Below are positions 1,407 to 54,375 of a DNA stretch of 64,000 bases, one piece after another (within the stretch, counting starts at the first letter, position 1; every line of letters starts with the position of its first letter). Made by a program: the position numbers and the translations under genes. Origin of the DNA: Candidatus Woesebacteria bacterium (GTDB lineage: Bacteria > Patescibacteriota > Microgenomatia > UBA8517); contig CP066693.1 of assembly GCA_016432525.1 (NCBI GenBank), positions 160,815-224,814 on the forward strand, in the 5' to 3' direction. The notes below the pieces were generated by a model that saw only the letters and a program-made list of their open reading frames with translations, ran no database searches and was not told where the DNA came from.

Positions 1407-1637
1407 TTAAAGTACTGTTAAAGCAAACAAAAAAAGAAAAAGCGCAAATAAAAAATGTAAGTAAGATAAAATCTTAATTGGAACTTCAAGTCCAATCTCC
1501 AAAGTATTAGTCATAATTCTTGTTTGTCTGACAACAACAAATGCAAAAACTACATACAAAGCCAAAAGTATAACAACTGGTATTTTAACAATTATCCACG
1601 GATCCACTCTTCCGAGGTTTAAAAAATCTAAGCTCAC
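1407..1637 (-). CDS. Small hydrophobic membrane protein (76 aa)
   Basis: Two predicted TM segments; ATGA-type 4-nt overlap with the downstream gene 1634..2284, suggesting co-translation. Confidence 0.3.
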   Translation of the reverse strand: MSLDFLNLGRVDPWIIVKIPVVILLALYVVFAFVVVRQTRIMTNTLEIGLEVPIKILSYLHFLFALFLFLFALTVL

Positions 1638-2284
1638 CTTACAACTCCCTCTCTTTCTTCTATTTCTTCCTCAACTCTCAACTCTCTCAAAATTTTTGCG
1701 ACTCGATCAGGTTGTGGAACAGCTTCAAAATCAAACTCCTGCTCCTCAGCTGCAGTTTGAATCAAGATATCTCCGTAATTTAAGACAGTTCGTATTACGC
1801 TTCCAACTCTAACAGTAACATCCTGAATTTGTGAAAGTTCACAATCGGATATTTGTCTAAAAACAAGATTGTAAAAATCAACATCAAAAATTCTCTCATC
1901 AGTCACAATATAAACATTAAAAAACCAAATTAAAAAATTCTCAAAAATATAAGCAGAAGTAATCAAATACCACGAAAGTATTGCTACCATAAAAAATCTA
2001 AAAGGAAGAAAAGAAAGAACCGGAAAACTAAGTGCCACCAAAGGAGCAGCTAACATCAAAATTCCAACCACAATCCATTTAATATTAGTAATAGGATGCT
2101 TTCTCATAAGCAAAACAACTGTTTCCTCACTATCTTTATTCTCAAAATTAGCATGTGCTGGATAATAACAAAAAGAAGAGAGTGGATTATGGCTCTTTTT
2201 CTGTTGGGCATGAAATTCAGAATGTGATCCGTCTTTTTGAAGAGCTTCCTTCTTTTTTTTCTCAGCAACAAAAATATCCGCCAT
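1634..2284 (-). CDS. Membrane protein with bacterial PH (YdbS/YdbT-like, bPH_2) domain
   Basis: Two N-terminal TM helices followed by YIVTDERIFDVDFYNLVFRQIS...VTVRVGSVIRTVLNYGDILIQT, typical of membrane-flanked bPH_2 domains. Confidence 0.5.
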   Translation of the reverse strand: MADIFVAEKKKKEALQKDGSHSEFHAQQKKSHNPLSSFCYYPAHANFENKDSEETVVLLMRKHPITNIKWIVVGILMLAAPLVALSFPVLSFLPFRFFMVAILSWYLITSAYIFENFLIWFFNVYIVTDERIFDVDFYNLVFRQISDCELSQIQDVTVRVGSVIRTVLNYGDILIQTAAEEQEFDFEAVPQPDRVAKILRELRVEEEIEEREGVVR

Positions 2285-2295
2285 ATTAGAGCCTA

Positions 2296-4026
2296 TTATA
2301 GCTTTTCTATATTAAAAAGACTACTTTTTATACCCACATAACCAGGAGCTCTCAAATTAAATGCGCGCGCAAGCTCTCCACCATCAATCGTGACAGATCC
2401 CTTGTTTGTAGAAAAAGTAACATTCAAAGTATTCCCGCTATTTGAATAAATTACAGATACTCCAGATACACTGCTATATCCACCAATCCCGGCCAAATCA
2501 GACAGTGAGTAAGGGTTTCCTCCCCAACAAGAAGTGTCAATTGGTGAAACACGAGACGCATCTCCAGTTTGCTTATATAAAACCGTCCACGCATTTACTA
2601 TATCTGCCATTTCAGAGGAAGTTAGCCAAGGGTTACCTCGGCCACAAGAAGCTCCACCTCTAGATTTATACCAACCTTTATAAAACCAAGGTGATCCAGC
2701 CAACCTTTCATAGGCAGTTGAAGGCCAATCCCCAGATGCATCTTTAATTCCACTCCACCCCCATTGAGAAATTGTATATCCTCCAGAAGTTGAAGCATAG
2801 TAGGCGGCAGCTGGCTTTCCATCTTTCAATAAAACCATACCCCTTGTTGATGAAACTGCATCCCTCCATTTACCGCTCTTAAGTTGTGACTTATACACCT
2901 GACAAGATTCATCTGGACAAATCGAAGAGGCTCCATTATTTGTAGCATACAAAGCATAGCTTCGAGCTGCAATTGCCTGAGCTTTCAAAGCTTCAAATCC
3001 ACCATTATCTCCCCAACTTTCTGGAATCTCATAAATTCCCAAAAGATAATTATCCTCAAACGAAATTGCTCCATAACCACTAACAGTTATGGATCCTGGT
3101 TCAGAATATCCAGAGGTAAGCTGTGCTCCTTGGTAATAAGCTGATAGAATTGTTTGAAATGATTGCCCTGATTTTGCTCTTCCATAAGCTCCATATTGGC
3201 TCATCCCAGTTCTGTGAGGAGCTCCAAACGAAAAAGCAGCAAACGCAGGGCGATATCCAGGGTCACAAAAATTAGATGTACCACTAGCTCCAGAGCAAGG
3301 CTCAAGTGTATCTGGCGTATCCCCAACTGAAGTAGCAAATCCTCCAGCTTTCAAAGCTTCAAGCTCTTGTTGTTTTGATGAAAGCTCGGATAAATAACTG
3401 TCAACTTTAGAAACCTCTCCCGCCAAAAAAGTCGCCCTGCTATCAACTTGCGCGCGAGCGGCAGAAAGACTTGCCTTATTCTTTTCTAAGTTTGTCTTGT
3501 CACCTTTAAGTTTGGTCAAATCCTGTGAGTAAGCGTCCATTGTTGCTCTATCTTGATCCGCAATTTTTGCTCTTATAAAAATTTCTTGAAAAGCCTCTGA
3601 AGCAGAGTTTGACTCCAAAAAAGAAATCAGAGGATCGTAAGTTCTCAAAAATTTGTAATGGTTAAAAGTTTTTTCATCAAAAACTTGTTTTGTATAAGAA
3701 AGGTCAATCTCTCTCTGTTGTATTTGCTTCTCCAAATCATCAAGGTTCACAGAAATTCCACTAATCCTATTTTTAAGATCAGTTAGTTGCTGATTTAAAG
3801 ACGAAAGCTCTTTTTTGTTTGCCTCCTGAGCAGGAGCTAGTTTATCAATCGCATCTTTAATTTGAGAAATACAGAAGTTTAAATCAGTTTCAGGCCCTGG
3901 ATTATCACAATTTGTATCAGCCATCACTTTCTCAATTCTTCCCAAAAATAAGCTGACCAAAACAAAAACCGTCACAATCCATACAAACAATTTAAAATTC
4001 AAAATTTTGAGACTAAACTTTTTCAT
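2296..4026 (-). CDS. SpoIID/LytB-domain protein with N-terminal signal anchor and long coiled-coil region
   Basis: C-terminal half has SpoIID-family motifs (AIAARSYALYATNN...CPDESCQVYKS...GMVLLKDGKPAAAYYASTSGGYT). N-terminal TM is followed by heptad-like Q/E/K/L-rich region. Confidence 0.7.
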   Translation of the reverse strand: MKKFSLKILNFKLFVWIVTVFVLVSLFLGRIEKVMADTNCDNPGPETDLNFCISQIKDAIDKLAPAQEANKKELSSLNQQLTDLKNRISGISVNLDDLEKQIQQREIDLSYTKQVFDEKTFNHYKFLRTYDPLISFLESNSASEAFQEIFIRAKIADQDRATMDAYSQDLTKLKGDKTNLEKNKASLSAARAQVDSRATFLAGEVSKVDSYLSELSSKQQELEALKAGGFATSVGDTPDTLEPCSGASGTSNFCDPGYRPAFAAFSFGAPHRTGMSQYGAYGRAKSGQSFQTILSAYYQGAQLTSGYSEPGSITVSGYGAISFEDNYLLGIYEIPESWGDNGGFEALKAQAIAARSYALYATNNGASSICPDESCQVYKSQLKSGKWRDAVSSTRGMVLLKDGKPAAAYYASTSGGYTISQWGWSGIKDASGDWPSTAYERLAGSPWFYKGWYKSRGGASCGRGNPWLTSSEMADIVNAWTVLYKQTGDASRVSPIDTSCWGGNPYSLSDLAGIGGYSSVSGVSVIYSNSGNTLNVTFSTNKGSVTIDGGELARAFNLRAPGYVGIKSSLFNIEKL

Positions 4027-4059: not shown

Positions 4060-4917
4060 ATGAAAAAGCTATTCTTTTTGTTTTCTCTCTTTGCAATATT
4101 CATTCTAATTGGATCAGTAAATAAAATATCCGCCGCCTCATGTTCAAATTTTAATGTCACTCCTAATTCAGGACAAAGTGACACTGCTTTTACTTTTACA
4201 GCAACCTGCACTCAAGATGGTACATATCATCTCTTTATCACAGATCCCAATGGAGACACCAGCTTAAGCCAAATTATCGAAGTTCAAAATGGTCAATTCA
4301 CTACCATAGTTTCATCTGCAGCAGTGGTAGGACAATACAAAACCCAACTTGTATTCATTACAGATGTTCTAGCTCAAACTAATTTTACAGTTAACCCAGG
4401 AGGAAAAAGCCCAACTTGCTGTTCCATTACTTATTCCGACAAAAATTTCTGTTCAAATGTTCAAGGTCAAATTACACAAGGAAGTTGTAATCCAGTCCCT
4501 TCAGGATCAGAAGCCTGTCCTGAAAATTGCCCTGCTATAGATTTGCGTACAACTTGTGGCGGAAATGATATTTGGGTATGTGCAGGTACTTCTTCCATTC
4601 CCCAATATCTTTGTGCCCCCAACGGAACACAAAAAGCAGAAGGAGTAAATACAGCAATAGGCTGTGTACCAATCACAAAAATCGAAGATACCACAAGTTT
4701 CCTTTTAGTAAGAGGTGCCCAGTTAGCAGGCGGAATTTCTTTTCTTTTTATGATTGCAGGAGCATTCCAGTTAATTACCTCCCGTGGCGATCCTGAAAAA
4801 TTAATTTCAGGTCGACAACTAATCACTTCAGCAATAGGAGGTCTTGTTCTTCTTATCTTTTGTGTATTTTTATTAAAACTAATTGGAATTGATATCCTAG
4901 GTGTAATTACAAAATGA
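4060..4917 (+). CDS. Fusion protein: signal peptide + ~200-aa Cys-rich secreted domain + C-terminal VirB2/TrbC-like T4SS pilin module
   Basis: N-terminal signal peptide, more than 14 Cys in ectodomain. The C-terminus GCVPIT...TM1...TSRGDPEKL...TM2...IGIDILGV has the hydrophobic-loop(GDP)-hydrophobic topology of TrbC/VirB2-type pilins. Paralog of the next nine genes. Confidence 0.55.
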   Translation: MKKLFFLFSLFAIFILIGSVNKISAASCSNFNVTPNSGQSDTAFTFTATCTQDGTYHLFITDPNGDTSLSQIIEVQNGQFTTIVSSAAVVGQYKTQLVFITDVLAQTNFTVNPGGKSPTCCSITYSDKNFCSNVQGQITQGSCNPVPSGSEACPENCPAIDLRTTCGGNDIWVCAGTSSIPQYLCAPNGTQKAEGVNTAIGCVPITKIEDTTSFLLVRGAQLAGGISFLFMIAGAFQLITSRGDPEKLISGRQLITSAIGGLVLLIFCVFLLKLIGIDILGVITK

Positions 4918-5864
4918 AAAAAATAATCCTTCTCTCGCTACTCTTCTCTTTTTTTCTTCTTTTTGCAAGGCAAGCGCAAGCCCAACAACCAGCCAACACT
5001 TTTCAATGTAGCTGTGTTAGTGACGGCTTAGGCGGAAAAACATGCGTAATAGTTAGAGAAAATTGCAACTCTGGCTCTGTCTCAAATCTAAACTTATGTT
5101 CAACCGATCCTGGCTGCAAAGACTTTCTCAATGGAGCAACATGTACTATCCAATGTGTCGCAAGTTCAAACATCCAAAATATCACCTGGGGAGGCGCATG
5201 CGACCCTAATAATTCAAATCAAAAATGCGCTGACAACACAAGCTGTAGAACGGATTTTTCAAATAATTTTAGATGCCTTCTACCTGTAAATTCAGTCAAC
5301 ACAAATAAACAATGCCAAGACACAAACGAATGCATCGGCTATACAGATCCTCTCATTGTATCAAGATGTGGAACTCCTCAAGGCTCAACCCAGTCTATTT
5401 GTCAACCACTACCAAAAGGCCAACTCTGTAAAGACACTCCAAATGCTTCATGTAAAGCAAGTTGTAACACTCAAACAGAAGATCGAATTTCTGCAAACGT
5501 AACAGATTGCTCAGGTGCTACTCCAGTTTGTTGCGCCCCCAAATCTTCCACAACTGATACAGTTGTTTGTAAAACCAACGGAAAAGACGGGATCGACACA
5601 GCCGTAGGCTGTGTTCCCATTACAGAAATAAATTCGTTCGCAGCCAAAGTCTTTGGCTTTGCAGCGGGGATCGCTGGAGGAATTGCAATTTTTCTCATCA
5701 TAGTAGGTGGTTTTCAAATAATCACATCCCAAGGCGATCCTTACAAACTAAAAGAAGGCCGTGAAGTGTTAAATTCAGCAATTCTAGGTCTTCTTTTTAT
5801 AATCTTTGCTGTCTTTTTACTTAGAGTAATTGGAGTTGATATACTGGGAGTAATACCAAAATGA
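4914..5864 (+). CDS. Fusion protein: signal peptide + ~230-aa Cys-rich secreted domain + C-terminal VirB2/TrbC-like pilin module
   Basis: ATGA overlap with the upstream gene. Cys-rich region (more than 25 Cys). C-terminus GCVPITEINSF...TSQGDPYKL...VIGVDILGVIPK is homologous to the 4060..4917 C-terminus. Confidence 0.55.
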   Translation: MKKIILLSLLFSFFLLFARQAQAQQPANTFQCSCVSDGLGGKTCVIVRENCNSGSVSNLNLCSTDPGCKDFLNGATCTIQCVASSNIQNITWGGACDPNNSNQKCADNTSCRTDFSNNFRCLLPVNSVNTNKQCQDTNECIGYTDPLIVSRCGTPQGSTQSICQPLPKGQLCKDTPNASCKASCNTQTEDRISANVTDCSGATPVCCAPKSSTTDTVVCKTNGKDGIDTAVGCVPITEINSFAAKVFGFAAGIAGGIAIFLIIVGGFQIITSQGDPYKLKEGREVLNSAILGLLFIIFAVFLLRVIGVDILGVIPK

Positions 5865-6232
5865 AAACAAAACTATTATTTCTACTTCCAACGTTTTCCC
5901 TTCTTTTTCCTCGAATCGCTTTAGCCGCAGTCGCAAATAGTCCAACTGACTGTCAGGATTTTGGCATCAATACAGCTTTGGGATGTATTCCCTTAACAAA
6001 TATTAATAGCTTTACTGGAACCTTTTTGCGAATCAGCTTAGGCCTAGGTGGTGGCATAGCAACTCTTTTAATAATTTATGCAGGTTTTATAATGACCACC
6101 TCAACCGGTGATCCTAAACGCCTCCAGGCAGGAAAAGAGCTTCTTGGAGCTGCAATTGGAGGTTTAATGCTTTTAATTTTCGCAGTTTTTGTACTAAGAT
6201 TATTAGGAGTAAATATTTTAGGAGTACTATAA
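5861..6232 (+). CDS. VirB2/TrbC-like T4SS pilin paralog (subfamily 1, short N-terminal Cys pair)
   Basis: Signal peptide, CQDFGINTALGCIPLT, then TM1-TSTGDPKRL-TM2-LGVNILGVL; ATGA overlap with upstream gene. Confidence 0.55.
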   Translation: MKTKLLFLLPTFSLLFPRIALAAVANSPTDCQDFGINTALGCIPLTNINSFTGTFLRISLGLGGGIATLLIIYAGFIMTTSTGDPKRLQAGKELLGAAIGGLMLLIFAVFVLRLLGVNILGVL

Positions 6233-6577
6233 ATGAACCAACTCGCACAAAACGTTGATTTCAATACAATTCAAAGTCAGGGCCTTCCTGGCTTTAAATT
6301 CTCAACTGGCACAGTAGGATCAGTAACTTCAGCCCTCCTCCCCTATATCTTCGCCATAGCAGGTATAATTCTGCTTCTATTTCTAATTTCCGCAGGAATC
6401 TCATATATGACAGCCAGAGGTGATCCCAAAGCAATCTCAGGCGCTCAAGCAAGAATCACCTATGCGTTAATCGGCTTCATTATAATTCTTTTAGCCTACT
6501 GGGGGGCCCAGGCCGCAGGTCTTATTTTAGGCCTAGGCCAAATTACAAACACTTTCAAATATACACCTCCTTTTTGA
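6233..6577 (+). CDS. VirB2/TrbC-like T4SS pilin paralog (subfamily 2)
   Basis: MNQLAQ leader, TM1 (LLPYIFAIAGIILLLFLISAGISYM), loop TARGDPKAISGAQ, TM2 (ALIGFIIILLAYWGAQAAGLILGL). Confidence 0.55.
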   Translation: MNQLAQNVDFNTIQSQGLPGFKFSTGTVGSVTSALLPYIFAIAGIILLLFLISAGISYMTARGDPKAISGAQARITYALIGFIIILLAYWGAQAAGLILGLGQITNTFKYTPPF

Positions 6578-6594
6578 TGGTTTATAATTAATCT

Positions 6595-6915
6595 ATGAAA
6601 AATTATTTAGCCCAAGTTAACATAGGAAAAACTTTTGGTTCCCCTTTTGGCCAAGGAAAAGGAGTAAATGATTTAGTCTCCCTAGCCGTAAAAGTAGGCT
6701 TTGTCTTAGCAGGCATAATTATAATTTTTTATTTTATTTTAGGCGGTTATCAAATAATGAGTGGAGGTTCATCTGATCCACGCGCCAAAGAACAAGGAAA
6801 ACAAACAATTACAAGTGCAGTAATTGGATTTGTCATAGTCTTTGTGGCATACTGGATAGTAAGATTAATTGAAGTAATAACTGGCTCAAATTTCATAACA
6901 AATCCAGGATTATAA
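6595..6915 (+). CDS. VirB2/TrbC-like T4SS pilin paralog (subfamily 2)
   Basis: MKNYLAQ leader; TM1-SGGSSDPRAKEQ-TM2 topology. Confidence 0.55.
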   Translation: MKNYLAQVNIGKTFGSPFGQGKGVNDLVSLAVKVGFVLAGIIIIFYFILGGYQIMSGGSSDPRAKEQGKQTITSAVIGFVIVFVAYWIVRLIEVITGSNFITNPGL

Positions 6916-6917
6916 AT

Positions 6918-7253
6918 ATGTTTCAGATATTTGGTACTATCACACAACCCTCTCCCCTGGCTAAATTTGGATCTCTTGAATCAGGTGGAGCCGGAAATTT
7001 TTTAAATTTAATTTTTAAAATTTTGGTAGTTGGAGCAGGAATTTATGCTGTTATAAATATAATCTTAGCAGGTTACTCTTTTCTCTCTGCTGGCGATGAT
7101 CCAAAAGCAATAGCAGGAGCCTGGAATAAAATTTTGCAAACACTTATTGGCTTGGCAGTAGTAGTTGGCTGTTTTGTTTTAGCAGCAATCTTTGGAATTC
7201 TAATTTACGGTGATGCAGGCGCAATTCTTGCGCCTAAAATTCCTACGTTATAA
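6918..7253 (+). CDS. VirB2/TrbC-like T4SS pilin paralog (subfamily 2)
   Basis: TM1-SAGDDPKAIAGA-TM2 topology; 2-nt spacer from upstream paralog. Confidence 0.5.
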   Translation: MFQIFGTITQPSPLAKFGSLESGGAGNFLNLIFKILVVGAGIYAVINIILAGYSFLSAGDDPKAIAGAWNKILQTLIGLAVVVGCFVLAAIFGILIYGDAGAILAPKIPTL

Positions 7254-7266
7254 CAAAGTCACAAAT

Positions 7267-7635
7267 ATGAAACTAACTGATATTCCACTATCTCCCCCAG
7301 GAGGATTTAGTCATCCTTTTGGTCCTTTAGGGCAAACAAATAACGCCGCCGCACCATCACAGTTTACAAATTTCCTCTCAAGCGTAATAGGCGTAATGAC
7401 AATAATTGCAGCGATCTGGTTCACCTTTATTTTTATTTCAGGCGGAATTGGAATAATTTCATCAGGTGAAGACAAAGGGGCACTGGAAAACGCCAGAAAA
7501 AGAATTACAACAGGCATAATCGGCCTTTTTGTAGTCGTTGCTGCTGTTTTTGTAATAAACTTAATTGGAAATCTGCTAGGATTTGGATCAATTCTAAATC
7601 CAATCGATCTTATAAACCAAGTAAAACCAAGATGA
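7267..7635 (+). CDS. VirB2/TrbC-like T4SS pilin paralog (subfamily 2)
   Basis: Track ORF 7210..7635 overlaps the previous gene. The internal ATG at 7267 (MKLTDIPLSPP...) avoids the overlap. TM1-SGEDKGALENA-TM2 topology. Confidence 0.5.
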   Translation: MKLTDIPLSPPGGFSHPFGPLGQTNNAAAPSQFTNFLSSVIGVMTIIAAIWFTFIFISGGIGIISSGEDKGALENARKRITTGIIGLFVVVAAVFVINLIGNLLGFGSILNPIDLINQVKPR

Positions 7636-7997
7636 AAAATTATTTAGCTGCAGCAGGAGGAGATGTTCCAACAGGCGGGATTACCAATCCTGTTCTTAAC
7701 AAATCAATCCAAAACCAAACCGGCCTTAGTTTTTTCCAAACCATTATCCCCAATTTCATAACTCTCGCGCTCGTTGTTGGTTCTTTAATCTTTGTTTTTA
7801 TTCTCATAACTGGCGCAATCTCTTGGATTTCCTCAGGTGGCGACAAAGCAAGTGTAGAATCAGCCAGAGCAAAAGTGACCCACGCTTTAATTGGTCTAGT
7901 AATTTTATTTTCCGTTTTTGCAGTAATTAAGCTTGTCGAAGCCATTTTTGGTTTGAAAATTTTGACTCTTGACATAGCTCCTCTTTTCATTAAATAA
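7632..7997 (+). CDS. VirB2/TrbC-like T4SS pilin paralog (subfamily 2)
   Basis: MKNYLAAAGG leader; TM1-SSGGDKASVESA-TM2; ATGA overlap with upstream gene. Confidence 0.55.
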   Translation: MKNYLAAAGGDVPTGGITNPVLNKSIQNQTGLSFFQTIIPNFITLALVVGSLIFVFILITGAISWISSGGDKASVESARAKVTHALIGLVILFSVFAVIKLVEAIFGLKILTLDIAPLFIK

Positions 7998-8004
7998 TAA
8001 ATAC

Positions 8005-8361
8005 ATGAGAACATTATTAGCACAAGGAACCGGAGGAAGAGGAGATACCATCAACCTATCACCAACAGGTCAATTCGCTAATTTAAATGGAATAACAATT
8101 CCAGGAATAATCACTTTTGCAGTTACAGCAGTTTTAGTAGTAGCAGGTTTAATCTTCTTCTTCATGCTAATTATAGGAGGTATTAAATGGATTGTCTCAG
8201 GTGGAGATAAAGCAAACACAGAAGCAGCTCGAAATCAAATTACAGCAGCCTTAATTGGCTTAGTAATAGTTTTCGCAGCCTGGGCAATAATTACCTTATT
8301 AAGCAATATATTTGGAATTTCAATTCTAAATCTAACTCTTCCAGGTATTCAACAAGGCTAA
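8005..8361 (+). CDS. VirB2/TrbC-like T4SS pilin paralog (subfamily 2)
   Basis: MRTLLAQGTG leader; TM1-SGGDKANTEAA-TM2. Confidence 0.55.
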   Translation: MRTLLAQGTGGRGDTINLSPTGQFANLNGITIPGIITFAVTAVLVVAGLIFFFMLIIGGIKWIVSGGDKANTEAARNQITAALIGLVIVFAAWAIITLLSNIFGISILNLTLPGIQQG

Positions 8362-8446
8362 AACCTATCTAATATATCTTTCAATATGCATATATTGTTC
8401 ATATTGATTTCTCTCTGCTTTTTACTTTAGACTTATATTTAAAGGT

Positions 8447-8794
8447 ATGAATAATTTACTAGCTCAAGCCACTAAGATTCCCGAAGTCCCTCTCCAGGTT
8501 GGTCAAAACACAACTGTCAGTATTCCCTCTTTAAAAGGCTTTGAGACTCTTTTTGCAAATGTCCTTCAAGTTGCAATAGCTCTAGCAGGTATTGGTTTTT
8601 TTGTAATGCTTCTCATAGGTGGCTTTAAATATCTAACATCTGGCGGCGATCCAAAAGCAGTTGAGTCAGCCAAAAACACTCTTACTTGGGCAATTTTCGG
8701 TCTAGTTGCTGTTGCTCTCGCCTTTCTGATTCTTCTTGCAATTGCAAACTTTACTGGAGTCACAAGTATTCTAAATTTCCAGGTAGCCCCATGA
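8447..8794 (+). CDS. VirB2/TrbC-like T4SS pilin paralog (subfamily 2)
   Basis: MNNLLAQATK leader; TM1-SGGDPKAVESA-TM2; stop overlaps start of the hydrolase gene (ATGA at 8791-8794). Confidence 0.55.
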   Translation: MNNLLAQATKIPEVPLQVGQNTTVSIPSLKGFETLFANVLQVAIALAGIGFFVMLLIGGFKYLTSGGDPKAVESAKNTLTWAIFGLVAVALAFLILLAIANFTGVTSILNFQVAP

Positions 8795-11700
8795 GATTAA
8801 AAAAAAAGTATTTTCTGGCAACTATTTTAGGTTTTTTAATATTTTTTTCATCACAAGTTGGTAATTTAAGTAATACCAAAGCAGCAGTTGCATCCCCTCA
8901 GCTTAAAACTGAAATAAATTTCTTTCTCAATCAATCAGATACCAGTGGCTATCTTCTTTGGCAATACTCTGGAACTACTGATCCAGCAGGAATAATCGGT
9001 GGCGACTCGGTCGACTCATACTCGTTCTACGGAAACGGTACCGTTTGTGCAACATTAAAGGAAATGTCCCAATCTCTTCCTTCTGGAAAATTCTTAGGTG
9101 TAAACGTCCACGCCTTAAGTAATCACTTAGATAAGCTAAATACTGTTCTAGATGATCTCGAAAACAATTGCGGTACATCAGTAATTAGAATTTTTGGAAC
9201 TTCGGGAAACGGTGGCCCGGGAGCTGTCAAATCTGTTTTGGATGCAGCAGCATCCAAAGGAATGAAAGTAATTGTTGCAGCAGATGATTATTCAAATATC
9301 ATAGGTCCTGCAAACCCAGACCCCACAAATTGGTATCGAAGTGGATATAGAACTACATATCTTCCTTATGTTTTATCTCTTGCCCGTACAATCGGAGGAA
9401 ATCCAGGTCTTTTTGCAATAGAACTTGCAAACGAACCTCACTGTAGTGGTGTTATAGGTTGTGTTCCTTATTACAACTCTTGGGTAGCAGACGTTTCAAG
9501 CCAAATAAAGGCAATTAATTCAAGTATCCAAGTAAGTATTGGACAAATGGGAAATAACACCAATAATCGAGGCGATTCTCCTCCTCCAGGAGATTACAAA
9601 CAAAGCAATAGTGTAAGCACAATTGACATTGGATCAGGACACTATTACACAACAGGCGAAAGAACAATAGTTCAACAAGCGCAGTCTCAAGCCCAATCTC
9701 TTGGAAAGTCTTTCTATATTGGTGAGGCAAGCTCAACCTTGGTTGTTAATGACAACACCTCAACTGGGGGCAACCAACCTCCTATTCAAACCCCCAAACC
9801 AGATCCTTTTGTTCCTTGTGATGAAGTAAGATTAAGCCAAGGAAATACAGAATTCCATTCTCTCAGGCCTTACCAATCAAGCCCCTGTAATACTCAAATG
9901 TCAGATGAAGCTTTATATTGTGGAAACGATCTAATCGTTAAAAAAACTTTTACTGTAACCCCAAGCCAGGGAACATGTACCTCTTTTTGGCCTGACGGCT
10001 CTCCCAAAACCTGTAATTTTACCTTTGACAATACTATCAATTCAACAAATATTTCAGTTGACCTTTCAAACGCCAAATTTCCAATTATGGGTAATACAGA
10101 AAATGTTCCAAACGAATACGGCCAAGGCGTTACACCTCAGGCAACAGACACACAAAAAGTAAATGAATATGTAAGTTGGTACTTGCAAGGATCAAAACAA
10201 AAAGCAGAAGAGCCTTTAACCAACGTTCAAGGAACTGATGACGCAGATACAAATTCAGATGCTTACAAACTGGTCAATCTCACAGGTCCACTGCGAAGGC
10301 TTTTACCAGAACGCCTTCAAAGAGTTCAAAGATATTCGACCATAGTCAAAGCAACCAAAGGAATGCCTCCACCAAAAGCCAACGGTGCAATATCAGATAT
10401 GAGAATCGGAGCCCTTAACCCAACTCTTCAAAAAGAATCTCATGACGAAACAGTTGGTTGCATGAATAATGGCAATGGAGAAGTTTTTCCATGTACTACT
10501 AATACAGATGAAAGTGAACGCATAAGGCTATCTTTCTTCCTAAATAAACTTGTAGGCCCGGGAGGCGGTTCTCCTCTTTTGGAAGAATTTCCAGCCTATC
10601 AAACTAACGGTCAATTCGATTTCTATAAATTCTGGCAAGCCTATCTTACATTTAACGGCAATCCTGTGTGTATTATTTATGGCTTTCTCTGCCCAACCGA
10701 CCCTGTAGGTAGAGCCCAAGCTAACATTTTCTTAAACATTCCCTTCTCTTCAACCGAAGATCGTTTAGGTCAAACATATACAAACAATGGGCTGGTTATA
10801 GATCCAAATTTAGTCTCCCAACCCCAATCAGACTCTCAAGTTTCAAATGTGGAGTTTGTTCCCACAAACACAAAACACAGACTCTATTTTGCCCATATGC
10901 AAGAAAGCTCAGAGCTTGCAACTTTAATCCAAAACACTTTCCTTCCAAAAGGAGTTACCGCTTTCGACCCCTCCCCTCCTAGTCAAACCTTTTATAACTC
11001 CCAAAGGTGTGAAATAAAAGATGCAAGGTCAAACCCAGGAGACAATCTCTTTGGTAATTTCACTCAGCCTGCCAATAGTCCAATTTCAGGAGACCAGACA
11101 ATCGCAGGGAAAATCTCATACACTGTAAAGTTTACATGCGAGTTTCCCCAACCCACTCCAAATCAATCATGTATAAACGATTGTATCTTTAACCTTTCTA
11201 AAGCTGGCCTACCAACAAATACTTGTTCGTCTCAATGCCCCCCAATTCAACCAACATGTACAAGAACTTCACTTACCGCTCTTTCAATCTACACCCAAAC
11301 TCCAAAAATCAATGATGTTTGGCAACAATTGGTTGAAGGTCCCTCCTCAGTCTTCAAAAGAATATTTCCACAAGTAAGCCCCAATGCACCAGTTACTGAG
11401 ATCAAAGATGTTCCAGGAGTAACCCAAGCCTCTTATTCAACCTCCTCAGATGAAGTCCTTGCAGGCGACCCAGGAGCTAATCGTGCTGGCTCTCAAGCTC
11501 AACTCTTCTTTCCTCATATTGGAGGAATCTATGATTATTTCCTAAAAGATATTCAAACAGCCTTAAGACCATACGGAGTTGCGCCAGATTCCCCAGGTAC
11601 TACCGCCCAAGTGTCCCCTGTATCTTCAAGCGTTGATCCTGGTCAATGCAGAAGTTCAATCTGGTCAGGAATACCAATAGACGGTTTTCCAGGCCCAATT

Positions 11701-12279
11701 GCTGATGCATTTCGAGCTGCATCCGCAAAATTCAATATCCCAACTTGTGTCCTAACGGCAATTGCAAGCATCGAAGGCTCAACAATGAGAAATCTATCAA
11801 ACACAGAAGCCCAAGCGATCGCAAGACCTTGGACAAGTGGGCCTCAAGCAGAAATTCCCGATTCTCTATATCCAGGCTTACTAAATAAAATAAATTGTTA
11901 CCTTAACTCAGCCGGAGCAATTGGCCCTATGCAAATTACAATTGATTCCTGGAATGGATATCAAGATGCATCTCAAGGTTATCTTGGAACAAGAGTTCCA
12001 GATAGATGTAATGCAGCTGATGCAATTTTCGCTACAGCTAAATTCCTTGTAAATGGAAGATTGCCAATATACGGCTTTCCAGCAGGATCTGGCTGGTCAG
12101 ATCCCAGAAAATTCTGCGCCGCAGGCCAAACTAACTATGGATCTTGTAGGCTTGATCGCCCAACTTGTAACAATTTAGGAACAAACTACTGTGACTTTCT
12201 CCTTAACTATTGTAAAGGTTCAGTAAATCTTCCATCTAGCGCCAAATGTTCTGATTACTTTCCAACAGACCCACGATAA
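8791..12279 (+). CDS. Giant secreted cell-wall hydrolase: N-terminal GH5-like glycoside hydrolase domain, Cys-rich middle, C-terminal lytic transglycosylase (SLT/VirB1-like) domain
   Basis: Likely start is the ATG at 8791 (MRLKKKYFLATILGFLIFF signal peptide); track ORF start 8686 overlaps the previous pilin gene. IELANEPHC resembles the GH5 NEP acid/base motif. The C-terminus TAIASIEGS...AIGPMQITIDSW...AADAIFATAKFL resembles SLT-domain motifs (ES...GxMQ). Confidence 0.5.
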   Translation: MRLKKKYFLATILGFLIFFSSQVGNLSNTKAAVASPQLKTEINFFLNQSDTSGYLLWQYSGTTDPAGIIGGDSVDSYSFYGNGTVCATLKEMSQSLPSGKFLGVNVHALSNHLDKLNTVLDDLENNCGTSVIRIFGTSGNGGPGAVKSVLDAAASKGMKVIVAADDYSNIIGPANPDPTNWYRSGYRTTYLPYVLSLARTIGGNPGLFAIELANEPHCSGVIGCVPYYNSWVADVSSQIKAINSSIQVSIGQMGNNTNNRGDSPPPGDYKQSNSVSTIDIGSGHYYTTGERTIVQQAQSQAQSLGKSFYIGEASSTLVVNDNTSTGGNQPPIQTPKPDPFVPCDEVRLSQGNTEFHSLRPYQSSPCNTQMSDEALYCGNDLIVKKTFTVTPSQGTCTSFWPDGSPKTCNFTFDNTINSTNISVDLSNAKFPIMGNTENVPNEYGQGVTPQATDTQKVNEYVSWYLQGSKQKAEEPLTNVQGTDDADTNSDAYKLVNLTGPLRRLLPERLQRVQRYSTIVKATKGMPPPKANGAISDMRIGALNPTLQKESHDETVGCMNNGNGEVFPCTTNTDESERIRLSFFLNKLVGPGGGSPLLEEFPAYQTNGQFDFYKFWQAYLTFNGNPVCIIYGFLCPTDPVGRAQANIFLNIPFSSTEDRLGQTYTNNGLVIDPNLVSQPQSDSQVSNVEFVPTNTKHRLYFAHMQESSELATLIQNTFLPKGVTAFDPSPPSQTFYNSQRCEIKDARSNPGDNLFGNFTQPANSPISGDQTIAGKISYTVKFTCEFPQPTPNQSCINDCIFNLSKAGLPTNTCSSQCPPIQPTCTRTSLTALSIYTQTPKINDVWQQLVEGPSSVFKRIFPQVSPNAPVTEIKDVPGVTQASYSTSSDEVLAGDPGANRAGSQAQLFFPHIGGIYDYFLKDIQTALRPYGVAPDSPGTTAQVSPVSSSVDPGQCRSSIWSGIPIDGFPGPIADAFRAASAKFNIPTCVLTAIASIEGSTMRNLSNTEAQAIARPWTSGPQAEIPDSLYPGLLNKINCYLNSAGAIGPMQITIDSWNGYQDASQGYLGTRVPDRCNAADAIFATAKFLVNGRLPIYGFPAGSGWSDPRKFCAAGQTNYGSCRLDRPTCNNLGTNYCDFLLNYCKGSVNLPSSAKCSDYFPTDPR

Positions 12280-12304: not shown

Positions 12305-13828
12305 ATGTTAAAATCTAAACACATGTATAAAAAAATTTTTCTCTCATTGATGCTTGCCTTCTCTACTCTTCTTTTTACAATTGCCCCAGCAGTTCATGCT
12401 CAAACCACCTGGTGGGACCCTACTCTTCAGGAATTTGGAACTAAAGTTTCCCAAGGAAATCCAAATGATATCTTTGGAGAAAGATACACCTACGCACAAG
12501 TCAACTGGATTATCCTCTCTTTAATTACAATTATCGAAGGAAAACAATTAGCAACATGCTCATCAAGCGCTGATTTTGGCGCAACCATTACTTGTTTATC
12601 TACAAAATTAAGTAGTCAAGCACCAGACGGCCCGATTCTGGCTTTAGCAAGTTGGTCAGACAGTTTTCTTAAAACAAAACCCGCCTCAGGGGTTGATTGG
12701 ACAACCAACTTAGCAAGCAATCTCCGCCTTATTCCAGAAGCCAAAGCTCAAGGTTATGGATTTAAAACTCTTTCAGTTGCAGCAACTCTTTGGAAAGGTA
12801 GCAGAAACTTTGCATATGCTTTAATGACAATTGCAATCGTTATTCTTGCTTTTATGATCATGTTTAGAGTGAAAATTTCCCCACAAGCCTCGGTTACAGT
12901 TCAATCAGCTATTCCCAAAGTTGCAATTGGTTTGGTACTTATAACATTTTCATACGCAATTGCAGGATTTTTGGTTGACTTGGCATTTGTAGCACAAGGA
13001 ATAATAGGTTTAATGTTTAATACAACAGGAATCTCAGGTGAATCTGCAATCAGCCTCTTCAACAACATGAACAATGGTTTGGGAGGAATTCTTACATTGT
13101 CATTAGGTCTGATGGTTCTTGCTCTTGTACCAGTTGCTGGAGGTTTAATTCTCACAGTCACAGGTGTGGGGGCAATAGCAGGAACACCTTTATTCCTTGG
13201 GGGTATACTATTGATAGTATTAATATTCATAGCATTGTTTATTTCAATAGTTAGGATATTTTGGCTACTTCTTAAAACTTACGTTGTTCTTCTTCTTTTG
13301 GTAATAGCCGCACCGTTCTTTATACTCTTCTCAATTGTTTCTCCCGGTTTTGGTTTCGGAGGCTGGTTTAGAACATTTATTGCAAATTTGATCGTTTTCC
13401 CAACTGTAAGTATATTAATACTTTTCGGTCATATGCTGCTTTGGAGCGGAATTAGCACAGGACTTACAACACAAGGGTCTAATCTTAATCCTGCAAATCC
13501 ATTTTGGATAATGCCTATTAACGCCGGTCAAACAATTGGAGGTACTACAGCAGCCCTACCTACCCTAGGAGGTGGAATACGCATTGAATTTATTAGTTAT
13601 TTCGCTGCATTCTTCTTGTTAATGTCTATCGTCTCGATTACAAATGTAATCAAAGCACTCTTTGAGTCAGGAAGACTAGGAAGATATGAATCCGCAGTTG
13701 GCCAAACAACAGGAGTTGTAACAAGGCCAGTGCAAAATTTTGTTGTTTCACCTGCAACCAGCGCTGTTCAAGGTAGTATCAAAAATGTAATATTTAATCG
13801 TTTAGGAGTGAAGCCTCCTGGACCATAA
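12305..13828 (+). CDS. Polytopic membrane protein, VirB6/TrbL-like candidate
   Basis: Signal peptide, ~150-aa extracytoplasmic domain, then at least 6 TM helices over ~300 aa; position between pilins/hydrolase and VirB4 as in T4SS loci. No motif-level confirmation possible by eye. Confidence 0.4.
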   Translation: MLKSKHMYKKIFLSLMLAFSTLLFTIAPAVHAQTTWWDPTLQEFGTKVSQGNPNDIFGERYTYAQVNWIILSLITIIEGKQLATCSSSADFGATITCLSTKLSSQAPDGPILALASWSDSFLKTKPASGVDWTTNLASNLRLIPEAKAQGYGFKTLSVAATLWKGSRNFAYALMTIAIVILAFMIMFRVKISPQASVTVQSAIPKVAIGLVLITFSYAIAGFLVDLAFVAQGIIGLMFNTTGISGESAISLFNNMNNGLGGILTLSLGLMVLALVPVAGGLILTVTGVGAIAGTPLFLGGILLIVLIFIALFISIVRIFWLLLKTYVVLLLLVIAAPFFILFSIVSPGFGFGGWFRTFIANLIVFPTVSILILFGHMLLWSGISTGLTTQGSNLNPANPFWIMPINAGQTIGGTTAALPTLGGGIRIEFISYFAAFFLLMSIVSITNVIKALFESGRLGRYESAVGQTTGVVTRPVQNFVVSPATSAVQGSIKNVIFNRLGVKPPGP

Positions 13829-18164: not shown

Positions 18165-19217
18165 ATGCAAGAACATCCAGTACCCCAACAAATTTCATCA
18201 TATAGCTTCAAATTAGTCGGAGATATGACTCTTAAGCAATTTTTTGAAGTTGCAGGCGGAGTTGGTGTTGGAATTCTTTTTTACATCACAGGTCTTCCAG
18301 GAGTTATAAAGTGGCCCTTGATTCTTATCTCAGTTATCACAGGAGGAGCACTTGCTTTTATCCCTTTTGAAGAGCGTCCTCTAGAACAATGGATTTTTGC
18401 CTTCTTTAGATCAATTTACTCTCCAACTCTTTTCTATTGGAAAAAGTTAGAAGCTCGCCCACAATATTTCCAAAAGGAATTGCCAGTTATTCCAGAACAG
18501 TTTCAAAAACCAAAAGAACAAGTTCAAGAAATTGAAGCAATAAAACCAGAAATTCTAGCTCAAATTCAAAAGAAAGAAGTTCAAAAAGCAGACACACAAA
18601 CTCAAAACTTTCTTTCAAATCTTGAAAATACCGAAAAAGCTTTTCTTTCTCAAATCAACAATCTTTTTAGCCTCAATCTTGTTCCTCCAAAGCCTTCTAA
18701 AGTTCACCCCGATTTAATCGGGGAAAAACCAAGCCTTACAGTTCCACCAACCTTAAAAGTTGCCGTCTCCCCTTCTTCAAACATTCCCAAAGTTGAAAAA
18801 GTTATAATTCCAGCCCAAAACGTACAGGTCAGTAAAGTCTCAAAAACTTTAAAATCAAATCCTATTTTGGATGCCATGCAGGCTCAATTTACAACTAATG
18901 TTCCTTCAATGCCAACTCAGTCAAATACAATAACAGGACAAATTCTAGACACAACAGGAAAAATAGTAGAAGGCGCAATAATAGAAATTCGAGATGCTGC
19001 AGGCCGTCCAGCTCGTGCACTTAGAAGCAACAAGGCAGGACATTTTCTTATAAGTATTCCTTTTTCTAATGGAAAATATGAAATAATCGTAGAAAAAGAG
19101 GGTTTAGCATTTACCCCTGTCAGCTTTGAAGCAACAGGTGGCATCATTCCACCAATTCTCATAAAAGCAGATAAAGAGGTTGTAATAAAAGATATTTTCC
19201 AAAATGAAAAGCTTTAA
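18165..19217 (+). CDS. Membrane protein with two N-terminal TM helices (VirB3-like position), Q-rich linker and C-terminal carboxypeptidase-regulatory-like beta-sandwich domain
   Basis: Two TM segments near N-terminus directly upstream of the VirB4 region. C-terminal GQILDTTGKIVEGAIIEIRDAAGRPARALRSNKAGHFLISIPFSNGKYEIIVEKEGLAF resembles CarbopepD_reg-like folds. Confidence 0.4.
   Translation: MQEHPVPQQISSYSFKLVGDMTLKQFFEVAGGVGVGILFYITGLPGVIKWPLILISVITGGALAFIPFEERPLEQWIFAFFRSIYSPTLFYWKKLEARPQYFQKELPVIPEQFQKPKEQVQEIEAIKPEILAQIQKKEVQKADTQTQNFLSNLENTEKAFLSQINNLFSLNLVPPKPSKVHPDLIGEKPSLTVPPTLKVAVSPSSNIPKVEKVIIPAQNVQVSKVSKTLKSNPILDAMQAQFTTNVPSMPTQSNTITGQILDTTGKIVEGAIIEIRDAAGRPARALRSNKAGHFLISIPFSNGKYEIIVEKEGLAFTPVSFEATGGIIPPILIKADKEVVIKDIFQNEKL
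18707..18723. repeat. Hairpin-forming 17-mer ccccgatttaatcgggg (copy 2, inside CDS 18165..19217, encodes HPDLIGE)
   Basis: Exact second copy of the 17978..17994 sequence; flanks also similar (tt[c/a]ccccgatttaatcgggg). Confidence 0.5.
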
Positions 19218-19911
19218 AAATTTTACAAACAAAATACCAATATTAAATATTCCAGATGTTCCAATTGTTGCAACAACCCAAGATCATCTTCCAATTGAAG
19301 ATATTGTAGATAACATGCTTATCTACAAAGATGGTGGAGCAGCAATTGTATTAGAATCAACATCTTTAAACTTTGGTCTTCTCTCTGATAACGAGCAAGA
19401 AGCAGTAATCGCAGCTTACGCAGCACTCCTAAATAGCCTTTCCTTTTCAATTCAAATTCTAGTCCGATCTCAAAGAAAAGATATTTCAAATTACTTACAG
19501 TATTTAGAAAAAGAAGGAGCAAAAATCCAAAATCCCAAACTCCAGGTCTTAATGACTGGTTACAGAAACTTCATATCAGAAACTATTAAAAAGAAAAATG
19601 TACTAGGAAAACGCTTTTTTATAATTCTCATGTTTTCTTCTCTAGAGCTGGGAGTTACAAAATCCTTTATGGCTTTCACTAAAAGATCAAAGATCCTTCC
19701 TTTTTCAAAAGAATATGTCATAAAAAAAGCAAAAATCACTCTCTATCCCAGAAAAGACCACATTACCCGCCAGGCATCTCGCTTGGGTTTAAAACTCAAA
19801 GAGTTAGATTCAAACGAGTTGGTAGAATTATTCTATGATATCTATAATCCAAAGCCACCGGCTACATCAATAAGAGAGGAGAAAGATGAATCCACAACAA
19901 TCACAAGCTAA
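19204..19911 (+). CDS. Hypothetical protein in T4SS-like cluster (immediately upstream of and overlapping VirB4 start)
   Basis: 235-aa ORF, translationally coupled (overlaps) on both sides; no recognizable motif. Confidence 0.4.
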   Translation: MKSFKNFTNKIPILNIPDVPIVATTQDHLPIEDIVDNMLIYKDGGAAIVLESTSLNFGLLSDNEQEAVIAAYAALLNSLSFSIQILVRSQRKDISNYLQYLEKEGAKIQNPKLQVLMTGYRNFISETIKKKNVLGKRFFIILMFSSLELGVTKSFMAFTKRSKILPFSKEYVIKKAKITLYPRKDHITRQASRLGLKLKELDSNELVELFYDIYNPKPPATSIREEKDESTTITS

Positions 19912-53700: not shown

Positions 53701-54375
53701 AGACCCTGCCTCATTCCAAGTAAGTGTTATTGCGCCAACAGCACCTGTTCCGCCTCTTTTGACGGTTGTTCCTGAATTACTTCCCGCGCCGCCTCCACCA
53801 CCGCCAGGATATACACCGTTAGAACCGTTAGCATTAGCTGCTCCACCACTTCCACCGCTTCCGCCGCCTCCTGCGCCGCTTCCGCCGTTGGGCGGTGCAC
53901 CATTGGTACCGCTGGCTCCATTCTGGGCATTTCCAGCTGCAGCTCCTCCACCTCCGCCTACGGTGGTTGCATTCGCAGCGCCATTTCCACCATTATTTCC
54001 AGCAGGAATTGAATTAACTCCGTTTCCTGCAGCACCTCCAGCACCACTTCTGTTTCCGGCGCCACCACCTGAAGCTTCAACCTCATTATTGTTATAACCA
54101 GACTGCCCACCTGGAGTTCCGTTAGTATTGTTGGTACTTGCCCCTGCACCTCCAACGCCGATTAGAATAGTCAAGACATCGTTTGGATTTGCAACGACAC
54201 TATTGATAGTATAAGCTCCACCTCCGCCTCCTCCAGCACCATGAGCGCCTGTAGTTCTACCGTAAGAACCACCTCCACCTCCGCCTCCCCAAACTTCAAC
54301 AGTAACATTACCACTTATATTGCTTGGAACTGTCCAGTTATTATTATTGTTGAAGGTGATTGTATTTTGGGCCAT
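52687..54375 (-). CDS. S-P-S-[I/V] repeat protein, segment A (Gly/Asn-rich N-terminal domain + repeat tract)
   Basis: Firm start (in-frame TAG two codons upstream): [39 protein letters not shown]...[12 protein letters not shown]. ~210-aa Gly/Asn/Ala-rich domain then ~85 SPS[IV] units. No signal peptide. Confidence 0.6.

Follow-up and report, generated by a model that had tools for sequence, protein, structure and literature searches.

What is the role of ten adjacent genes for small membrane proteins, all ending in the same module and two of them carrying large cysteine-rich secreted domains, on the chromosome of a monoderm ultrasmall bacterium? We addressed this question in Candidatus Woesebacteria (Patescibacteria/CPR), using a window of 64,000 nt, i.e. 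the whole stretch of DNA analysed, to which all positions refer. As the first-pass annotation had proposed, positions 4060-8794 are occupied by ten consecutive co-directional ORFs (Table 1), and all ten proteins end in two hydrophobic helices with a [ST]-x-G-D-[PK] loop between them, in which Asp is invariant. The division into two subfamilies, g1-g3 (here class 1) and g4-g10 (class 2), is also real. Several details of that annotation have to be amended. The ATGA overlaps, described as many, exist, but they are found at three of the nine internal junctions (g1/g2, g2/g3 and g7/g8), with a fourth at 8791 between g10 and the next gene. The C-terminal motif given as common to g1-g3 needs a minor correction, as g3 reads LGVNILGV, and the M-x-N-[YL]-LAQ leader ascribed to all of g4-g10 persists as M-x-x-(x)-L-A-[QA] in five of these seven genes and is absent from g6 and g7. 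The cysteines, put at >14 and >25, number 13 in g1 (12 in the ectodomain and one in helix 2) and 24 in g2. The start of g7 is ambiguous, the alternative to ATG 7267 being GTG 7210, which gives a longer ORF.

Table 1. The pilin-like array and its surroundings (window coordinates; fractions are loci with a homologue among the 80 related loci)
Feature	Position	Strand	Length (aa)	Description
Membrane protein	1634-2284	-	216	Weak bPH_2 match; conserved array neighbour; 64/80
Coiled-coil protein with SpoIID domain	2296-4026	-	576	PF08486, E = 6.6e-14; 65/80
g1	4060-4917	+	285	Class 1; predicted signal peptide, ~170-aa ectodomain with 12 Cys, GVNTAIGCVP, C-terminal helical hairpin
g2	4914-5864	+	316	Class 1; predicted signal peptide, ~205-aa ectodomain with 24 Cys, GIDTAVGCVP, hairpin
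g3	5861-6232	+	123	Short class 1; predicted signal peptide, 2 Cys flanking GINTALGCIP, hairpin
g4	6233-6577	+	114	Class 2, ortholog group 1
g5	6595-6915	+	106	Class 2, ortholog group 2
g6	6918-7253	+	111	Class 2, ortholog group 3
g7	7267-7635	+	122	Class 2, ortholog group 4; length from ATG
g8	7632-7997	+	121	Class 2, ortholog group 5
g9	8005-8361	+	118	Class 2, ortholog group 6
g10	8447-8794	+	115	Class 2, ortholog group 7
Secreted protein, GH5-like domain	8791-12279	+	1162	35 Cys; PF00150, E = 5e-6; 28/80
Polytopic protein	12305-13828	+	507	Signal peptide; four long hydrophobic stretches (hydropathy scan); 36/80
PrgI (VirB3-like)	18165-19217	+		PF12666, 32 bits (gathering score 27)
VirB4-type ATPase with intein and LAGLIDADG endonuclease	19886-23401	+		PF19044, E = 4.5e-28; PF14528, E = 1.6e-21; PF14890, E = 9.7e-17
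M23 peptidase (cell-wall hydrolase)	23402-24796	+		Adjoins VirB4; PF01551, E = 1.2e-17

The T4SS pilin identity suggested in the first pass holds at the level of the PF18895 (T4SS_pilin) family. Seven of the ten proteins exceed its gathering cut-off of 26.6 bits, taken on whole-protein scores (g2 30.3, g3 27.2, g4 34.1, g5 40, g7 33.2, g9 38.1 and g10 47 bits); g6 (18.9 bits) and g8 (21.4 bits) remain below it, and g1, which has no Pfam match, is tied to the family by the 51-54% identity of its module to that of g2. The helical hairpin expected for this module was recovered in AF2 models with pLDDT > 90, both in g9 (helices 32-64 and 69-103) and in g2 (helices 239-271 and 276-305). A direct link to canonical VirB2/TrbC, on the other hand, could not be shown: the best score of the ten array proteins against PF04956 was 19.2 bits (g5) for a cut-off of 27.9. 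The profile search of PDB sequences gave no pilin among its matches, and the fold comparison with PDB structures gave no significant pilin match. Alignment with hhalign to an approximate A. tumefaciens VirB2 sequence returned a probability of 0.2. Homology to canonical VirB2/TrbC could not be demonstrated by sequence or fold.

The fold matches of the array hairpins are generic membrane or coiled-coil hairpins, ATP synthase subunit c among them. This favours a reading in which the hairpins form a channel, stalk or platform that lies in the cytoplasmic membrane or immediately above it, similar to F-ATPase subunit c or FliQ-type export-gate proteins, with no extended pilus, the class-1 proteins being hairpin-anchored surface proteins; seven distinct and fixed class-2 subunits (see below) would also be easier to reconcile with such a defined complex than with a homopolymer, and T4SS of monoderms normally lack pili (PMC12857230). 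We nevertheless regard this membrane-embedded hetero-oligomer as rather unlikely. The modelled helices, 33-35 residues long, exceed what a bilayer requires, and the literature annotates and treats the family as VirB2-like pilins on structural grounds (PMC10633639, PMC12857230). Moreover, when the g2 module is compared with the PDB, the match of highest probability is a pilin of the archaeal Ced/Ted conjugation type (8dfu, Aeropyrum pernix; TM-score 0.65 on target, probability 0.75), but at 13% identity and E = 1.9 this match is not significant.

The genomic context points to a T4SS. PrgI, VirB4 and the M23 peptidase are located at 18-25 kb of the window, followed by dnaN, dnaA, rnpA and yidC at 25.8-30 kb; PrgI, VirB4, the M23 peptidase, dnaN, dnaA and yidC are all within 25 kb. 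Such a chromosomal T4SS near the replication origin matches the published Patescibacteria layout near oriC (PMC12102498). The same survey defines a VirB2-like pilin array as at least two pilin genes in tandem, or with one non-pilin gene between them, in a VirB4-encoding Patescibacteria genome, and we find ten adjacent genes together with VirB4. The 1162-aa GH5-like gene belongs to the array operon, since its start overlaps the g10 stop. The 507-aa protein that follows has no Pfam match; its hydrophobic stretches can be read as about six helices, and by topology and position it is a candidate VirB6 analogue. The SpoIID gene is divergent from the array and its product is a candidate cell-wall remodelling partner.

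One might argue that the array makes up an independent surface or cell-wall module together with the divergent SpoIID-like gene and the genes for the GH5-like giant secreted protein and for the polytopic protein, and that virB4 is nearby only by coincidence. The array and virB4 are separated by 11 kb with opposite-strand genes between, the conserved neighbours in related loci are these same genes and not classical T4SS genes, the 10-kb flanks of those loci contain VirB4 in one case and PrgI in six, and significant VirB2 similarity is lacking. However, 10-kb flanks are too short to reach a virB4 gene at the distance seen in the window, and weak TrbC matches recur over the same region of the array proteins. 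In Saccharimonadia the homologous pilin series sits inside the T4SS cluster (PMC10633639), and 1135 of 1948 assemblies have a pilin gene near virB4 (PMC12102498). That the array is no T4SS component thus appears very improbable, whereas it is probable that the locus is the Microgenomatia form of the Patescibacteria T4SS-associated pilin array, composed of ten small membrane proteins sharing a C-terminal PF18895 helix-loop-helix.

Such arrays are already known: 441 of them, with 2-11 pilin genes each, were reported in Patescibacteria, and they are especially abundant in Microgenomatia (Quinonero-Coronel et al. 2025, PMC12102498). The size of the present one, which the first-pass annotation considered unusual, is so only relative to classical T4SS, and not for this phylum, as its ten genes fall at the upper end of the published range. 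What our data add is a fixed plan, obtained from 80 related species-level loci; these were picked by class-1 module similarity, which limits the frequencies to arrays of the Microgenomatia type. The plan, which is the usual one in Microgenomatia, consists of one to three class-1 genes and seven Cys-free class-2 genes, with exactly seven class-2 genes in 39 of the 80 loci. Over these 39 loci, 96.1% of 10,374 cross-locus best hits fell on the same ordinal position, and the median identity was 47% for the same position across loci as compared to 32% within an array. Gene by gene, the best hit was at the same position in 38/38 loci for g4 (position 1), g6, g9 and g10, in 37/38 for g7, 36/38 for g5 and 35/38 for g8; the g9 group is the most conserved, with a median pairwise identity of 56% and 2135 homologues found. 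Each of the seven class-2 genes belongs to an ancient group of orthologs of its own, and throughout Microgenomatia the order of these groups is unchanged. Their products have a hydrophilic N-tail of 25-45 aa and mostly a short M-x(0-5)-hydrophobic-A-Q start in place of a signal-peptide-like N-terminus.

This conservation bears on a second idea of the first-pass annotation, that the array is a reservoir for pilin variation. In such a reservoir the paralogues would be interchangeable major pilins expressed alternately, so that antigens or host range would vary, a role put forward for the virB2 arrays of Bartonella and Anaplasma. The published survey suggested this analogy (PMC12102498), both systems showing a run of several VirB2-type genes within a T4SS locus; the array paralogues are just 19-34% identical to the g1 module, and the class-1 copies vary in number without detectable positional orthology among the related loci. 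The positional best hits argue against such a reservoir, as the seven groups keep the same order in deeply diverged lineages and each is more conserved across species than are the paralogues within a genome. In place of diversifying selection, the comparison of sister strains indicates purifying selection (dN/dS 0.06-0.07 for class 2 and 0.06-0.13 over the array), neither repeats nor recombination cassettes were noticed in the array, and the Southlakia counterparts are essential by Tn-seq (PMC10633639). Whereas the Bartonella and Anaplasma genes are recent lineage-specific amplifications with a presumed role in antigenic variation, those described here are ancient and syntenic. We therefore consider the reservoir improbable.

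The two long class-1 proteins follow a different pattern. In g1 and g2 the module and a secreted Cys-rich domain are genuinely encoded by one gene, rather than joined by sequencing errors: the independent sister assembly GCA_040960765.1 has the same fused ORFs (285 and 317 aa) with all cysteines kept (13/13 and 24/24), and the g2 protein is identical to NCBI HYS03_00485 of Candidatus Woesebacteria. The heads are themselves under purifying selection (dN/dS 0.09-0.13 between sister strains), and g1 and g2 as genes give 0.11 and 0.10. As the same fused ORFs occur under strong purifying selection in an independent assembly and the plan recurs in dozens of species, the ten-gene pattern is not due to chance. 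Class 1 evolves faster, with sister-strain identities of 79-86% against 90-92% in class 2. The heads are hypervariable, the 61 long ones of the related loci falling into 52 BLAST clusters. The g1 ectodomain is an orphan, with a single relative, from the sister strain (85% identity), among 5.8 billion clusters. The g2 head has about seven relatives, every one fused to this pilin module in the same architecture. AF2 models residues 25-87 of the g2 head at ~80-88 pLDDT and residues 101-215 below 50.

Of the 91 class-1 proteins of the 80 loci, 60 are at least 170 aa long; PF18895 matches 56 of the 61 long relatives, and adhesion-type domains (VWA, BACON, CarboxypepD_reg) occur in other heads. A hydrophobic N-terminus resembling a signal peptide is present in 75 of 91 class-1 proteins versus 44 of 383 class-2 proteins, an even number of cysteines in 72 of 91, and a Cys...TA[IL]GC motif in 74 of 91. 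Judging from the sequence, the C-x(10-16)-TA[IL]GC[IV]P motif would be placed just outside the membrane, and we take its flanking Cys pair as a putative disulfide.

Comparison with known systems delimits what may be specific to this array. It resembles the other Patescibacteria arrays (the SEML1_0006-0019 cluster of Southlakia epibionticum, the 'Sec secreted array' of TM7x and the 441 survey arrays) in its PF18895 membership, its tandem divergent small hairpin proteins and its T4SS, encoded close to dnaA on the chromosome of an ultrasmall monoderm. The papers on these arrays state that no adhesins were detected, and their searchable texts do not describe the split into a Sec-dependent Cys-bearing class and a signal-less one, the seven positional orthologous groups or the hypervariable heads. 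With canonical VirB2/TrbC/TraA pilins (PF04956 and relatives) the array proteins share a size of ~100 aa, two hydrophobic helices, a short polar loop and association with VirB3 and VirB4; they differ by the apparent lack of a long cleaved leader in class 2, the sub-threshold PF04956 score, the absence of a match to solved pilins, the monoderm host, and many non-redundant paralogues in place of one major pilin. The minor pilin and pseudopilin sets (GspG-H-I-J-K, FimU-PilVWX with PilY1, large-domain minor pilins) offer a functional analogy, as conserved paralogues of a polymerisation module in fixed gene order, one member of which bears an additional large domain that sits at the tip. No membership is claimed, as those proteins have a single N-terminal helix and a prepilin peptidase whereas ours have a C-terminal hairpin, and fold and biogenesis are unrelated.

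The array is best read as encoding a heteromeric pilus or stalk whose host-binding heads are interchangeable, and the adhesin- or tip-type role first suggested for g1 and g2 is retained in this reading. We know of no Patescibacteria T4SS for which a filament has been seen. The class-1 proteins would be exported by Sec via their predicted cleavable signal peptide, g1 and g2 bearing in addition large, presumably disulfide-rich and lineage-specific heads. The class-2 proteins would probably be inserted as N-out/C-out hairpins in a YidC-style manner, each representing a distinct, ancient and non-redundant subunit. A T4SS core made of the VirB4 ATPase, PrgI/VirB3 and the co-operonic 507-aa polytopic protein, as VirB6 analogue, could then pull the hairpins out of the membrane into one heteromeric pilus or stalk crossing the cell wall. 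In this structure the seven class-2 subunits might hold fixed roles (shaft, base, adaptor), by analogy with minor pilins and pseudopilins. The class-1 subunits would expose their variable heads, as modules of host-cell recognition and adhesion, on the surface or at the tip, and the large, fast-changing Cys-rich outer domains of two of them may bind the host cell.

It is possible, though we would not call it probable, that Microgenomatia assemble seven fixed VirB2-like subunits, none of them redundant, into a heteromeric T4SS-type pilus or stalk, and that host specificity is set by interchangeable disulfide-rich heads fused to an eighth, Sec-dependent class of subunit. If this is true, the essential T4SS of Patescibacteria would have its missing adhesin, or VirB5 equivalent, in this Sec-dependent class.

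The ten genes of the array (g1 to g10) are consecutive and co-directional and share a C-terminal hairpin module, as the first-pass annotation had described. Their intergenic gaps range from -4 to +85 bp, with ATGA overlaps at three internal junctions and a fourth between g10 and the next gene at 8791. The module is made of a pair of long hydrophobic helices with a [ST]-x-G-D-[PK] loop between them; its Asp and two Gly are the same in all ten proteins. The division into two subfamilies also stands: class-1 (g1 to g3), with a signal peptide, a Cys motif and often a large ectodomain, or head, N-terminal to the module, and class-2 (g4 to g10), which are short. The first two genes are indeed Cys-rich, but with 13 Cys in g1 (one of them in helix 2) and 24 in g2 the earlier counts were slightly high; g3 has 2, g6 has 1 and the other class-2 proteins have none.

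Coordinates of the array, its neighbours and other features of the window
Feature	Position	Strand	Remarks
SpoIID-domain 576-aa coiled-coil protein and 216-aa membrane protein (weak bPH_2 match)	1634-4026	-	Adjoin the array, divergent
Array g1 to g10	4060-8794	+	Ten consecutive ORFs of 285, 316, 123, 114, 106, 111, 122, 121, 118 and 115 aa
Possible sigma-70-type site, near consensus	7969-7998	+	Just upstream of g9; TTGACA, 18 nt, AATAAT; 11/12 matches
1162-aa secreted protein, 35 Cys, GH5 (cellulase)-like domain	8791-12279	+	ATG overlaps the g10 stop (ATGA)
507-aa protein, signal peptide, ~130-aa extracellular N-domain, polytopic region	12305-13828	+	Downstream, in the direction of the array
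PrgI/VirB3, intein-containing VirB4, M23 peptidase	18-25 kb		Followed by dnaN, dnaA, rnpA, yidC
VirB4-type ATPase with intein and LAGLIDADG homing endonuclease	19886-23401	+	PF14890, PF14528, PF05204
GC-rich segment (0.43-0.47, against ~0.36 elsewhere)	50580-54375		Strong GC skew; mirror-image long ORFs on both strands

Membership of the array genes in PF18895 (T4SS_pilin) is established, in agreement with the pilin assignment first made: seven of the ten pass the Pfam gathering score, g6 and g8 are sub-threshold, and g1 is missed despite 51-54% identity between its module and that of g2. Unlike this membership, canonical VirB2 homology is not established. PF04956 (TrbC/VirB2) gave below-threshold matches only (best 19.2 bits, cut-off 27.9), and the comparison of the class-2 profile with VirB2 by hhalign was negative, as was a PDB sequence-profile search, which returned only de novo designed helical proteins with a 'GDPxxxE' helix-loop motif, rejected as irrelevant. 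The AF2 model of g9 is a confident helical hairpin (helices 32-64 and 69-103, pLDDT 90-95). The model of g2, which is 100% identical to HYS03_00485 of Candidatus Woesebacteria bacterium, starts with a signal helix, followed by a small domain (25-87, pLDDT ~80-88), the Cys-rich middle (101-215), a beta-hairpin next to the membrane (219-235) and the two helices of the module (239-271 and 276-305). The pLDDT of the Cys-rich middle is below 50, so Foldseek matches of the g2 head are meaningless. The top-probability structural match of g2 is the Aeropyrum pernix conjugation pilin 8dfu (probability 0.75, target TM-score 0.65, E = 1.9). That the array is a module without relation to the T4SS we regard as highly improbable.

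A scan with the class-1 module alignment as query, taking one genome per species, retrieved 80 related loci, whose ORFs were then searched with local HMMs. All 80 lie in Microgenomatia-type MAGs (Woese-, Gottesman-, Blackburn-, Davies-, Roizman- and Beckwithbacteria, among others). Many of the records (L002, L008 and L010, for instance) are titled 'uncultured Gammaproteobacteria bacterium' despite their Patescibacteria-type array, and these titles are probably wrong. The common plan is class-1 followed by Cys-free class-2 genes. Class-1 is present once in 72 loci, twice in 5 and three times in 3 (and in the window), and the number of class-2 genes is exactly seven in 39 of the 80.

We compared the class-2 genes by ordinal place, from position 1 (g4) to position 7 (g10), in the 38 seven-gene loci with a recovered split plus the window. 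Each class-2 gene of the window has its best BLAST match at its own position in 35-38 of the 38 other loci and, over all 39, 96.1% of the 10,374 cross-locus best matches fall on the diagonal. Median identity is 47% between same-position genes of different loci vs 32% between paralogues within one array. The g9 group, at position 6, is the most conserved (56%). The same-position best matches and this pattern of identities show that the seven short genes are ancient, non-interchangeable subunits, and not the product of recent amplification. No positional orthology could be detected among the multi-copy class-1 genes. In 12 of the 39 seven-gene loci more than 500 bp separate positions 1 and 2, so that class-1 and the first class-2 gene travel together; in split arrays such as L005, L033, L058, L068 and L076, class-2 genes 2-7 lie several kb from that pair.

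The 'M-x-N-x-LAQ' leader first ascribed to all the short genes is found in five of the seven (g4, g5, g8, g9 and g10, at 6233, 6595, 7632, 8005 and 8447) and is absent from the other two. Across the 80 loci, the motif M-x(0-5)-[LIVMF]-A-Q occurs at the N-terminus of 86/383 class-2 proteins, 1/91 class-1 proteins and 3/823 other ORFs. It is not followed by the hydrophobic core of a signal peptide, and may mark a place of processing or recognition.

Three features are common to the class-1 proteins: an N-terminus that is hydrophobic and signal-peptide-like (75 of 91), the motif C-x(10-16)-TA[IL]GC[IV]P (74 of 91) and a conserved anchor. Their length ranges from 76 to 626 aa (at least 170 aa in 60/91, at least 250 aa in 41/91) and their Cys content from 0 to 38, the number being even in 72/91. 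Diversity among the heads is extreme: BLAST sorts the 61 that reach 80 aa into 52 clusters. A single relative of the g1 head turned up in 5.8 billion clusters, and about seven of the g2 head in 1.84 billion representatives, these all having signal peptide, head and module. Pfam recognised almost nothing in these heads: one VWA, one BACON and, in another homologue, CarboxypepD_reg.

The fusions of head and module are real genes and not artefacts of sequencing error, since the sister-strain contig (GCA_040960765.1) carries matching fused ORFs of 285 and 317 aa. Between the two strains every Cys is kept (13/13 in g1, 24/24 in g2), and the Nei-Gojobori method gives dN/dS values of 0.11 (g1) and 0.10 (g2), or 0.13 and 0.09 for the heads alone; class-1 evolves somewhat faster, with 79-86% amino acid identity vs 90-92% for class-2. 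The first-pass annotation had also offered the array as a reservoir for pilin variation. This purifying selection and the positional orthology of the seven class-2 genes both speak against such a role, which we consider improbable.

The layout of the window is the near-oriC T4SS arrangement of Patescibacteria (Quinonero-Coronel et al. 2025, PMC12102498). Of the 80 related loci, 65 have a homologue of the SpoIID protein and 64 one of the 216-aa membrane protein; these neighbours may take the part of VirB1 in remodelling the cell wall. The GH5-like protein has a homologue in 28/80 loci; its C-terminus had been read by eye as an SLT/VirB1 domain, a reading dropped when Pfam up to E = 1 found nothing. 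The 507-aa protein (homologue in 36/80) has four long hydrophobic stretches, read as about six helices, and no Pfam match; it is a candidate for a divergent VirB6 of Microgenomatia, missed by the published survey. The VirB4 intein interrupts the TraG P-loop domain, one half of which lies on either side of it. A promoter and terminator scan of the region gave no enrichment over shuffled sequence. An rRNA operon suspected at 50-54 kb from GC content was ruled out, Rfam being empty there; Gly-rich proteins are encoded instead, the minus-strand ORFs including one with a Gly-rich domain (PF21722). No RNA genes were found by Rfam or ARAGORN across the whole 64 kb.

Patescibacteria cannot live on host cells without their T4SS. 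We propose that class-1 proteins would be exported by Sec, oxidised and anchored by their hairpin N-out/C-out; class-2 proteins, which have no signal peptide, would by homology be oriented likewise, their insertion probably being of the YidC type (yidC lies in the window). Extraction of the subunits and their assembly into a single heteromeric pilus or stalk would fall to a T4SS core made up of VirB4 and PrgI, perhaps joined by the 507-aa protein of the same operon in a VirB6-like role. The conserved hydrolases (SpoIID-like or M23) would open the cell wall. A hetero-oligomer that stays embedded in the membrane, in place of an extended pilus, seems to us rather unlikely. Within a heteromeric pilus or stalk, each of the seven class-2 groups would have its set place, in the manner of minor pilins and pseudopilins. 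Host binding, specific to each lineage, would be the task of the class-1 heads and would close the 'no adhesin, no VirB5' gap; the adhesin idea put forward for the head-bearing proteins is retained.

In this lineage large pilin arrays were already known, and the unusualness first claimed for the present one is not borne out: 441 VirB2 arrays of 2-11 pilin genes have been reported in 383 Patescibacteria assemblies (PMC12102498), of which kind our locus is a typical, upper-range member. That survey proposed an analogy with the virB2 amplifications of Bartonella and Anaplasma, detected no adhesins and found VirB6 homologues scarce in Microgenomatia (PMC12102498); a 2025 review described six VirB2-like pilins in Southlakia and speculated on a pilus in a monoderm. 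Whereas the published surveys draw on antigenic variation (PMC12102498), the window and its 80 relatives have fixed short pilins instead. The internal logic of the array is absent from the published work searched: seven fixed orthologous groups, Sec-dependent class-1 proteins whose heads are hypervariable, and a conserved set of neighbours from outside the T4SS. The short pilins form a fixed kit of seven parts, and the variable element is a separate class of pilin-module proteins whose hypervariable secreted heads are concrete candidates for host-specificity determinants. This offers a testable architecture for the array subunits (shaft vs base vs tip), points to the polytopic protein of the array operon as a candidate VirB6, a component not yet found in Microgenomatia, and makes the function of an essential system more testable.
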